From NCBI GenBank assembly GCA_964652755.1, contig CAZZBP010000004.1, positions 1 through 54,670 on the forward strand: 54,670 nucleotides of DNA. The letters run 5' to 3'. The notes beneath the pieces are model-generated. The model was not told where the DNA came from. It made no database searches and saw only the letters and a list, made by a program, of their open reading frames with translations. This document shows, one piece after another, positions 18,332 to 20,449 of this stretch. The position numbers were made by a program, and so were the translations under genes. This DNA comes from an uncultured Dehalococcoidia bacterium (GTDB lineage Bacteria; Chloroflexota; Dehalococcoidia; Lucifugimonadales; UBA826). Each line of letters starts with the position of its first letter. The stretch's first letter is position 1.

Positions 18332-19480
18332 TCAGGCGACTATTAATCCCGAGCCACCAGGGCTCGCTCCTGAGTACAACTTGTTCAAATTCGCATATTT
18401 TTCAGGGTTCAGGTCTCGACCCGAAATAGCGAGGTCGTGGGATCCATATTTGTGGGCGCGAAACACCATATTACTTGGAGCGCCGGTGCGCAAATCAGGA
18501 GTTTGAAACGGATTCACATATTCCCAGACTACATCTCCCTTCTCGGTGACTTCAAAAATCCTACCGAAAGCTCCCTCACATATGAGTGTATTCCCGTTGG
18601 CTAAACGTTCGGCACTGCTTATGTGAAAACTAAAGAAGGCCATAGGAGGTGTTTCCGTATATTCCCACTTCACTTTCCCACTCTCCGGATCCACTTCAAT
18701 TACCCGAGATCTGTCCGCCCCTTTTGAATGACTACCATTATCGAAGAGCAAGATATTTCCATTATCCAAGAACGTAGGATGGTGCTGGTGCCAAACCTCC
18801 CCAGGACCCCATTTCCACAGGAATCGGCCCGATTCCTTTCCTATAATGCCTATGGTACTTGTGTTCCTAAAGCTGACCAAGAAATCACCGTCAGGTGTCA
18901 GGTTTATACAGTTAGCGTGGGTCCATTCCCGCCTATGCTCTAATGGACAAATAACGTCTTCATCGTAGGAAAGGCTTTCCGAAATATTCCATTCACTGAC
19001 GGTATCCCCATCCGGCGAAATTTCTCTTATTAGATCACCAAGAATGGTAGGCGAATCCTCTTCAGATACATATCCGCCCTGAACCTTTTTCGTAGTCTCC
19101 TCGTCTAGTGGGTCAAACAATAACGCCAGCGTATTTCCATTCGATAATCTTACAAAGTCGTGGTGAAGCATTGGGTCATCGTATCGCCAGATCACTTCAC
19201 TCTCCCAGTTAATTTCTAAAAGAGCGGCCGAAGATCCTCCGAGATTCTGAACTAATTCCACATCGGTGGATGGATTTGTCCTGCATAAGAGATTCCCAGA
19301 GGAAAGAAGGTATGCATAGACTATCCCCTCTTCAGAATTCCACCTGTGTACTATCCTTCCTTCCATATCAAGCAGGGTAGCGTGATTGCCGCCATTTACG
19401 TTGGTGAACAGTGTGTAGCCACTATAAGCTGAGGAGGAGTTGTGAATTAGCCCCACAGGATGATGAATAGATCTGCCCAT
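18332..19480 (-). CDS. Arylsulfotransferase (ASST)-like beta-propeller protein
   Basis: 382 aa. Has 'LHHDFVRLSNGNTL', 'EWTHANCINLTPDGDFLVSFRNTSTIGII', 'HQHHPTFLDNGNILLFDNG' and 'RLANGNTLI', the His-rich repeat pattern of ASST-family proteins. No obvious signal peptide. Confidence 0.55.
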   Translation of the reverse strand: MGRSIHHPVGLIHNSSSAYSGYTLFTNVNGGNHATLLDMEGRIVHRWNSEEGIVYAYLLSSGNLLCRTNPSTDVELVQNLGGSSAALLEINWESEVIWRYDDPMLHHDFVRLSNGNTLALLFDPLDEETTKKVQGGYVSEEDSPTILGDLIREISPDGDTVSEWNISESLSYDEDVICPLEHRREWTHANCINLTPDGDFLVSFRNTSTIGIIGKESGRFLWKWGPGEVWHQHHPTFLDNGNILLFDNGSHSKGADRSRVIEVDPESGKVKWEYTETPPMAFFSFHISSAERLANGNTLICEGAFGRIFEVTEKGDVVWEYVNPFQTPDLRTGAPSNMVFRAHKYGSHDLAISGRDLNPEKYANLNKLYSGASPGGSGLIVA

Positions 19481-19498
19481 TGGTTTCTTCCAATAATT

Positions 19499-20344
19499 CT
19501 ATTTCACTAACGGGGTATCTTCGCGGTTCGCCCACTCTCCCATAGAGCCGTCATAGTTTCGCACTTTCTCATAGCCAAGCAGGGTGAGAACAAACACTCC
19601 GTGCGCCGCACGGATGCCTCCCTGTCAATACGTCACTATCTCTTTTTCAGGAGTCACTCCAGCAGCCTCAAGAATGTCGCGCAACTCTTGAGGGGACTTA
19701 AAAGTGTGATGTTTGTCATTCGTGACGAAATTAAGCCATTCAAGATGAACCGCGTCGGGAATCCTTCCAGATCTGCCGTTTCCCCTATCGACGGTTCCCG
19801 TCCATTCCTCATCAGACCGTACATCCAAGAAAAGCGTCTCATCATTTCCAATCGCTGACATAGCGTCGTCAATGAGACAAACCAGGTCGGGTTCCGACTT
19901 CGGCGTGAAGGTCACTTCTTTTTTCACCGGGCGGTCTATAGAAACAGGCCTCCCCTCATCAAACCACTTTTTCCAGCCTCCATCGAGAACTCTCGAATTA
20001 TTGTGTCCATAGTAGTTTAAGACCCACCAAAACCGAGAAGCCCACAAACTTCCACTGCTGTCATAAGCCACTACTGTGGTATCGTCTCCAATGCCCATAT
20101 CCTCAAATAGCTCTTTCACCACATCAGGTTCTGCAACCAAGGGATAGGATTTGGGGTCTCTTGCATAATCCGGATGTTTTATATAGTGATGCACTTTGAT
20201 CCCCGCCGCACCCTCGATGTGAGCTCTCGTATAAGAATCAAAAGGATCGCAATCGACGATCCTAATATCAGAATCACCTATATGTTCTTCCAACCATTGG
20301 GTAGACACTAAAATTTCTGGTTTAATAAAGCCATTGGACGGCAT
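19499..20344 (-). CDS. Two-domain rhodanese (thiosulfate/3-mercaptopyruvate sulfurtransferase-like) with in-frame TGA at the catalytic Cys position; candidate selenoprotein
   Basis: The tracked ORF ends at TGA (19625-19627). The same frame continues 'QGGIRAAHGVFVLTLLGYEKVRNYDGSMGEWANREDTPLVK' to TAG at 19499-19501. 'Y-[TGA]-QGGIRA' matches the rhodanese active-site loop C-x-x-G-x-R. Total length is 281 aa from the ATG at 20344, which has SD 'AGGAGA' 6 nt upstream. The alternative reading is a pseudogene created by a nonsense mutation. Confidence 0.6.
19580..19624 (-). promoter_or_regulatory. Putative bacterial SECIS-like hairpin immediately 3' of the in-frame UGA
   Basis: mRNA sequence: UGA-CAGGGAGGCAU-CCGUGC-GGC-GCACGG-AGUGUUUGUUCUCA-CCCUG. 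The upper stem CCGUGC/GCACGG is 6 bp and starts 11 nt after the UGA, with a G-rich apical loop. The lower stem CAGGG/CCCUG closes the element. Pairings were checked by hand. Confidence 0.45.
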
Positions 20345-20449
20345 CAGAAGTCTCCTATCACTGATTTCCAGAACAACCAAAAGATCGCACTGAATCTAGG
20401 GGGAAATTGGCCGGAGTATACCACAATAGAACAGCCACACAGGCACGTA

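Follow-up and report, generated by a model that had tools for sequence, protein, structure and literature searches.

Within the window, a 54,670-nt stretch of contig CAZZBP010000004.1 from the metagenome-assembled genome (MAG) of an uncultured Dehalococcoidia bacterium (GCA_964652755.1), we examined the gene of a two-domain rhodanese whose catalytic codon is an in-frame UGA followed closely by a compact RNA hairpin. The comparative evidence indicates that this hairpin, at 19599-19613 of the minus strand, is very probably a canonical bacterial selenocysteine insertion sequence (SECIS) that recodes the UGA at 19625-19627 as selenocysteine (Sec), the catalytic residue of the enzyme in marine SAR202 bacteria (Chloroflexota). 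Six lines of direct observation bear on this assignment: the structure of the hairpin, its position, an extreme conservation specific to the Sec forms of the gene, compensatory changes in the stem, a coding pattern 3' of the UGA, and the Sec machinery of the genome. The features concerned are as follows, all on the minus strand.

19499..20344 (-): gene of the predicted Sec-rhodanese (two-domain thiosulfate/3-mercaptopyruvate-type sulfurtransferase), assigned from Pfam, an alignment with 1UAR and orthologues
19625..19627 (-): in-frame UGA, the predicted Sec codon, in the motif Y-U-Q-G-G-I-R (UxxG) at the catalytic-Cys position, from translation and orthologue alignment
19614..19624 (-): 11-nt spacer from UGA to hairpin, CAGGGAGGCAU, its first 5 nt forming the 5' arm of the lower stem, read from the sequence
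19599..19613 (-): predicted SECIS core, a 6-bp stem CCGUGC/GCACGG with the triloop GGC, from RNAfold, RNAalifold and the synonymous-site freeze
19613-19608 (-): upstream stem arm CCGUGC, from the sequence
19605..19607 (-): apical loop GGC, its first G being the third position of an Ala codon, from codon counts
19604-19599 (-): downstream stem arm GCACGG, from the sequence
19598-19585 (-): 14-nt stretch between the core and CCCUG, from the sequence
19580..19584 (-): CCCUG, the 3' arm of the lower stem, complementary to CAGGG at 19624-19620 and not conserved, from alignment pairing and RNAalifold

Structure of the hairpin and fit to bacterial SECIS elements

The initial annotation of this stretch, made from the sequence alone, had described a two-stem element directly after the UGA. 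Its minus-strand coordinates for the UGA and the hairpin are all exact in the sequence, and the perfect 6-bp upper stem lies where it was placed, 11 nt past the UGA. An additional U-A pair lengthens the core to 19598-19614, giving the 17-nt RNA UCCGUGCGGCGCACGGA, and the codons of the hairpin specify I-R-A-A-H-G. When 19570-19630 (-) was folded with RNAfold, as had been proposed, the nested structure appeared as drawn in both the minimum free energy (MFE) and the centroid prediction, at -20.2 kcal/mol, and the 48 nt from the UGA folded at -19.6 kcal/mol. The 17-nt upper hairpin alone reached -9.9 kcal/mol with a z-score of -3.08, and 1 of 200 shuffles folded equally well; this upper part does stand out by itself, and the evidence that decides whether the helix exceeds chance is comparative.

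The consensus of bacterial SECIS elements comprises a loop of 3-9 nt, an upper stem of 4-16 bp, an MFE of at most -7.5 kcal/mol, a G at one or both of the first two positions of the loop (most often as N1-G-[G/U]-N-N2 with N1 and N2 paired), and an apical loop placed 16-37 nt from the UGA (PMC13188914 Fig. 2). The hairpin of the window falls within every one of these constraints, in line with the SECIS-like geometry first ascribed to it. The loop GGC has 3 nt and the stem 6 bp, or 7 with the U-A pair; the loop with its closing pair reads C-G-G-C-G (C-G-U-C-G in variants among the orthologues); 17 nt separate the UGA from the small G-containing loop, 11 in the spacer and 6 in the stem arm; and the energy of the 17-nt hairpin lies below the threshold.

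The minimal SECIS of E. coli is likewise a 17-nt upper stem-loop placed 11 nt past the UGA (PMC8659212). The window hairpin shares with the fdhF/fdnG elements of E. coli an intra-coding location, a start 11 nt past the UGA, a size of 15-17 nt, a conserved apical-loop G followed by G or U, and SelB as the presumed reader. In contrast to the E. coli stem, that of the window is perfect and lacks the bulged U (U17). The G23-U24 dinucleotide of fdhF also has no counterpart in the window loop, which is GGC, and GUC loops are confined to Ser-coding variants. The window hairpin can close as the triloop GGC or, when the closing pair opens, as a C-GGC-G pentaloop; counted from the U of the UGA, the loop G occupies positions 21-22 here and 23-24 in E. 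coli, and the two sequences are unrelated.

A dispersed repeat or palindromic site was also considered and rejected, since the 13-mer CGTGCGGCGCACG has a single copy in the window and the whole 2.08-Mb genome likewise contains just one.

Codon freeze in Sec forms and its absence from Cys forms

Orthologues were collected from 60 related genomes, a phylum-wide sample and named genomes (80 further loci). The gene was found with a single in-frame TGA in most families of the order among the 60 related genomes, the phylum-wide sample yielded further Sec and Cys forms from other Chloroflexota classes, and the named-genome scan returned TGA in all 80 extra loci. None of the conclusions depends on the unpublished genome G287, which was among the hits of one search. 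The resulting sets comprised 130 Sec forms, with 65 distinct 33-mers among them, and 19 Cys forms, 14 of which have the peptide RAAH. The same codon is TGA in 130/130 Sec-form orthologues, from Chloroflexota and from MAGs labelled Binatia, and TGT or TGC in the 19 Cys forms.

At least five of the six pairs of the upper stem are present in 128 of the 130 Sec forms, and the 13-nt core is essentially invariant. Among Sec forms with RAAH (n=125), 115 retain 6/6 pairs and 10 retain 5/6. The comparison with Cys orthologues, proposed in the initial annotation as a check, gave the outcome expected of a SECIS: in the 14 RAAH Cys forms 2-4 of the 6 pairs remain in the Sec register, and none makes this helix. 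The codons behind this difference are listed below (Sec forms, n=125; Cys forms, n=14).

Arg: Sec forms CGT 121, CGC 4; Cys forms CGC 7, CGG 4, AGA 1, AGG 1, CGT 1
Ala1: Sec forms GCG 125; Cys forms GCC 7, GCA 3, GCG 3, GCT 1
Ala2: Sec forms GCG 125; Cys forms GCA 4, GCG 4, GCT 3, GCC 3
His: Sec forms CAC 125; Cys forms CAC 10, CAT 4

Given RAAH, the stem requires U at the third position of Arg, which pairs with the A of His, and G at the third position of Ala2, which pairs with the C of Ala1. The third position of Ala1 is the first nucleotide of the loop; it is unpaired and synonymous, and it is G in all 125 RAAH Sec forms. By its place and invariance in the alignment, this nucleotide is identified as the conserved apical G of bacterial SECIS elements, and the comparative data show selection on it at a synonymous site.

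The remainder of the gene provides the reference for this freeze. Codon entropy is 2.1-2.3 bits at other Arg codons and 1.7 bits at another conserved Ala, where GCG is the rarest codon. The gene has 122 conserved degenerate codon columns; ranked by normalised synonymous entropy, the lowest eight all fall at codons -1 to +9 around the UGA, with values of 0-0.11 for the four hairpin codons against a gene median of 0.85. Shared ancestry as the cause of the freeze is excluded on the strength of the alignment, because the other synonymous sites of these sequences are saturated. The spacer is constant in length, at 11 nt without gaps in 42 aligned Sec forms, and the third positions of its two Gly codons vary freely.

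The codons flanking the UGA were also found to be constrained, with TAT at Tyr-1 in 97 of 108 sequences and CAG at Gln+1 in 105 of 112. An effect of codon context, either on the decoding of the UGA or on competition with release factor 2 (RF2), may lie behind this bias.

Covariation and the extent of the element

The RNAalifold consensus consists of the 6-bp upper stem only, and the 7-pair upper helix, which adds the outer U-A to these six pairs, has 94% of its cells paired. The rare Sec-form variants also keep the stem, as the search for compensatory changes suggested in the initial annotation was meant to reveal. In L061 and L064, where the peptide is R-S-S-N, the sequence becomes CGUUC-GUC-GAACG and pairing is preserved by a change from G-C to U-A. 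The outer C-G pair is replaced by G-C in L064 and by A-U in L023 and L065; L065 also carries a G-U wobble (GCAUG), and the Ser-coding variants L061, L064 and L065 share a GUC apical loop. The stem is kept where the peptide reads RSSN or RASH. Since G-U wobbles occur (L065, L042), the pairing fits the mRNA strand only. In L059 (R-A-G-H-S-T) the original 3' arm has been lost, and a GCACG located 5 nt farther 3' forms a 5-bp stem with an 8-nt loop. Both parts of the general test of a SECIS, covariation among Sec forms and loss in Cys forms, thereby point the same way, the covariation coming from few sequences because the stem is almost invariant.

It is quite unlikely that the functional element extends beyond this upper hairpin to the wobble-rich middle stem and the 5-bp CAGGG/CCCUG stem of the initial annotation. 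The nested fold is the MFE and centroid structure of this sequence, a double change from G-C to A-U occurs in the lower stem at columns 15/55 in 2 sequences, and in the middle stem 6-8 sequences have double changes at pairs 18/45 and 21/42. Nevertheless, pairing is seen in only 64% of cells for the lower helix (13-17/53-57) and in 70% for the middle stem. Of the five lower pairs, three are open in over half of the orthologues, and the lower positions that are always paired (A-U, G-U), like the constant pairs of the middle stem, are dictated by fixed codon letters. RNAalifold drops both helices, and third codon positions within their arms vary freely. In E. coli the lower stem is dispensable when the 11-nt spacing is preserved. 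Given the poor pairing and the codon-fixed constant pairs, the CAGGG/CCCUG stem is probably incidental to this sequence and not part of the functional element. The lower stem described earlier does fold here, and what the orthologues have kept is the upper stem-loop.

A divergent Sec-form rhodanese, L158 (G352:C1:1091234-1092637; 41% identity), carries the peptide U-QGGGRSAVAV and lacks the CGUGC/GCACG core. Another GC-rich structure follows its UGA and may represent a second SECIS solution within the same protein family.

Points against the assignment and the by-product explanation

Several observations weigh against the assignment of the hairpin as a SECIS. The RAAH-coding stretch is, by its codons, intrinsically prone to form hairpins, because two of the six pairs, G-C (Ala1/His) and G-Y (Arg/His), are forced by the amino acids and because Cys forms carry hairpins nearby. 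The GC-rich Cys forms L163 and L164 (G182, G335) contain GUGCGC-GCC-GCGCAC, a hairpin of six perfect pairs that is displaced by 2 nt from the Sec register and lacks a UGA, while L162, L166 and L168 form 7-bp stems farther 3', again without a UGA. The full element has no clear advantage over chance in single-sequence shuffling (z -0.89 for 61 nt, -0.81 for 121 nt and -1.71 for 48 nt). An Rfam scan of 19300-19900 with E up to 10 returned no SECIS family and only chance snoRNA-like matches; this check against covariance models is uninformative, since to our knowledge Rfam holds no general bacterial SECIS model. In the genome itself, selB is split over two contig ends, and no selC turned up in the MAG, which is 88% complete (20 tRNAs, ARAGORN).

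The first of these points could be taken to mean that the hairpin is a mere by-product of encoding I-R-A-A-H-G, with no role in recoding, given that CGN GCN GCN CAY is self-complementary; the two dictated pairs and the off-register hairpins of the GC-rich Cys forms would then be expected. This explanation is very improbable. All the free synonymous sites are fixed in the Sec forms but free in Cys forms of the same peptide, and the unpaired loop G is fixed as well, with no pairing or coding constraint to account for it. The hairpin codons have the lowest synonymous entropy in the gene although another conserved Ala uses GCG least of all, and forms with RSSN or RASH in place of RAAH retain the stem. 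The off-register hairpins of the Cys forms could serve as starting points from which a SECIS evolves, or they could give rise to false positives when SECIS predictors are applied.

The reading frame across the UGA

Translation of the minus strand gives a 251-codon open reading frame (ORF) at 19625-20380, closed by the TGA at 19625-19627. When this TGA is read through, a 293-codon frame continues to the stop TAG at 19499-19501. The mechanical start of the ORF is an in-frame TTG at 20380; because orthologue alignments begin at residue 10-13 of the 293-codon frame, the true start is probably the ATG at 20344, which would give a protein of 281 aa with Sec as residue 240.

The read-through protein contains two PF00581 Rhodanese domains (Pfam, E 7e-37). 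Its closest solved structure is 1UAR (E 7.5e-46), with which it aligns end to end, and the catalytic Cys of the solved two-domain rhodaneses 1UAR and 8K55 aligns with the window U; the active-site sequences are Y-U-QGGIRAAH in the window and Y-C-RIAERSSH in 1UAR. PRK11493 was aligned to residues 22-292, with a score under the cut-off. A tryptic peptide spanning Sec is encoded, ...EIVTY-U-QGGIR, and the peptides 3' of the UGA include NYDGSMGEWANR.

Downstream of the UGA, the 41 codons show pairwise differences of 0.18/0.15/0.49 at codon positions 1/2/3, which is a coding pattern, and they encode the conserved rhodanese C-terminus. TGA otherwise acts as an ordinary stop in this genome. It terminates 364 of 1203 long ORFs, and a genome-wide reassignment of UGA is ruled out by this count. 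Least credible of all is the idea that the TGA at 19625 is a real stop, of a truncated or decaying gene or through an assembly error, and the hairpin an unrelated terminator or protein-binding palindrome: standard gene calling does close the ORF there and TGA is a normal stop, but 130 orthologues from different phyla have TGA as the catalytic codon, the downstream codons evolve as coding sequence, no U-tract follows the stem, and its G-U wobbles suit the mRNA strand alone.

Selenocysteine machinery and proposed mechanism

Genes for Sec synthesis and insertion were identified in the genome and its relatives. The selA gene is present (528 bits). The selD gene (G000 contig C3:96223-97140 (-), locus L017) has an in-frame TGA at its active site, in the motif CAG-U-ASK, and 24 nt past this UGA starts a hairpin of nine perfect pairs, CUGUCGCAG/CUGCGACAG, closed by a GUU loop. 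The selD of this genome is itself a selenoprotein gene, and standard gene calling would shorten it. Like the rhodanese hairpin, the selD SECIS candidate follows a UGA at a known Sec/Cys site and combines a perfect stem with a triloop starting with G in the 16-37 nt window. The two differ in dimensions (9 bp at 24 nt in selD, 6 bp at 11 nt in the rhodanese) and have no sequence similarity. Given these differences in stem and spacing, the SelB of this lineage appears to tolerate varied stems and spacings.

The C-terminal part of selB lies on G000 contig C75:6828-8252 (-) and encodes domains 2-4 and the SelB winged helices (beta-barrel, SelB-wing_2 and SelB-wing_3 domains) before running off the contig end. 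A matching GTPase N-terminus, on G000 contig C69:3-443 (-), runs off the contig start. The two contigs are probably adjacent, with selB apparently split by the assembly. In the search of the genome for tRNA-Sec, the sole match above the gathering score was tRNA-Ser(gct), followed by tRNA-Leu. Among 25 relatives searched, 19 gave tRNA-Sec matches of 61-73 bits, and the tca anticodon was confirmed by ARAGORN in all three checked. As the relatives carry a clear tRNA-Sec, the absence of selC is put down to the incompleteness of the MAG.

By analogy with the E. coli and Moorella systems, we infer that SelB binds the hairpin and that Sec is inserted at the UGA. SelB-GTP carrying Sec-tRNA(Sec) would bind the apical stem-loop through its C-terminal winged-helix domains, touching the loop G. 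The 11-nt spacer would place the hairpin at the mRNA entrance while the UGA occupies the A site, and the tethered ternary complex would outcompete RF2. The ribosome would then melt the hairpin and read it as codons for I-R-A-A-H-G, a segment belonging to the active-site loop and the next helix.

Neighbouring gene, phylogeny and possible transfer

One neighbouring gene recurs with the rhodanese:

18332..19480 (-): arylsulfotransferase-like (ASST) beta-propeller gene, 18 nt past the rhodanese stop, from Pfam PF05935 and PF14269

Of 109 orthologous loci, 64 have an ASST-like gene 3' of the rhodanese, in most cases as the very next gene, with 50-75% identity (loci L023-L051, L072-L127). Judged from this gene order, the Sec-rhodanese and the ASST-like gene constitute a conserved two-gene module. 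Among the matches listed, no Binatia-labelled copy up to L123 has the ASST-like neighbour.

Fifteen copies of the Sec-rhodanese derive from MAGs labelled Binatia, Deltaproteobacteria or Thermodesulfobacteriota (L091, L093, L095, L098, L101, L109, L111, L115, L117, L123, L132, L134, L136, L142 and L149), and they contain the same frozen SECIS core. In a phylogeny made as a quick FastTree only, these copies form one clade with support 100 within the Dehalococcoidia copies, a pattern that suggests one transfer between phyla, in which the gene and its SECIS moved as a unit. Five Cys forms are nested among the Sec forms with support of 80-92; the starred branches do not force this nesting, and we make no firm claim from the tree on the number or direction of Sec/Cys switches.

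A more speculative idea, unlikely on balance if still worth stating, is that the self-complementary R-A-A-H codons were a pre-adapted site for the birth of a SECIS, and, relatedly, that the SelB of this lineage reads a bulge-less C-GGC-G triloop hairpin, unlike the E. coli mode with G23/U24 and a bulged U. If true, such pre-adaptation could explain both the interleaving of Sec and Cys forms on the tree and the transfer of an intact 13-nt hairpin from Chloroflexota to Binatia-labelled genomes.

Relation to known selenoprotein families

A selenoprotein family named 'Rhodanese-related sulfurtransferase' (COG2897; UxxG) was predicted from the Sargasso Sea metagenome by Zhang, Fomenko and Gladyshev in 2005 (PMC1088965). 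According to the legend of Fig. 3 of that paper, the SECIS predicted for the COG2897 family is drawn directly 3' of the UGA and has a small apical loop that contains a G (PMC1088965). Sulfurtransferase selenoproteins under cd01449 and COG2897 were also reported in the selenoproteome of the Global Ocean Sampling (GOS) project (PMC2398784). The window protein resembles the 2005 family in its two-domain SseA/TST-type rhodanese architecture, Sec at the catalytic Cys, the U-Q-G-G (UxxG) motif and its occurrence in marine bacteria. We found no substantive difference between them in a comparison made by description rather than by the sequences AACY01016424 and MCY3690685.1. The NCBIfam entries NF041203 (rhodanese_LYCAU; single domain, CxU) and NF045694 (TsoB) share the rhodanese fold and Sec with the window protein, but differ from it in architecture and in the position of Sec; the match to NF041203 was weak (27.9 bits against a cut-off of 115).

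The selenoprotein family and a predicted SECIS for it have been in print since 2005; neither family nor element is new, and the element is almost certainly genuine but ordinary. What is added to the published work is the comparison of 130 Sec forms with 14 Cys forms of the same peptide. No biochemical study of a Sec rhodanese appeared among literature titles on rhodanese, selenoprotein, SECIS and selenocysteine, and a search on SAR202 with selenocysteine gave incidental matches only.

Significance

The same peptide encoded by frozen codons in 125 Sec forms and by free codons in 14 Cys forms is an unusually clean natural experiment, and the Sec/Cys data set could be used as a benchmark for SECIS predictors. 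The practical value lies in the correction of annotations. Gene callers stop at the UGA (251-aa ORF, 19625-20380), so that the catalytic residue and the last 41 residues are lost, and because gene calling ends there, a widespread SAR202 enzyme appears truncated or inactive. Read through its UGA, the gene indicates that abundant marine SAR202 bacteria would invest selenium in a sulfurtransferase whose usual partner is an arylsulfotransferase-like gene.

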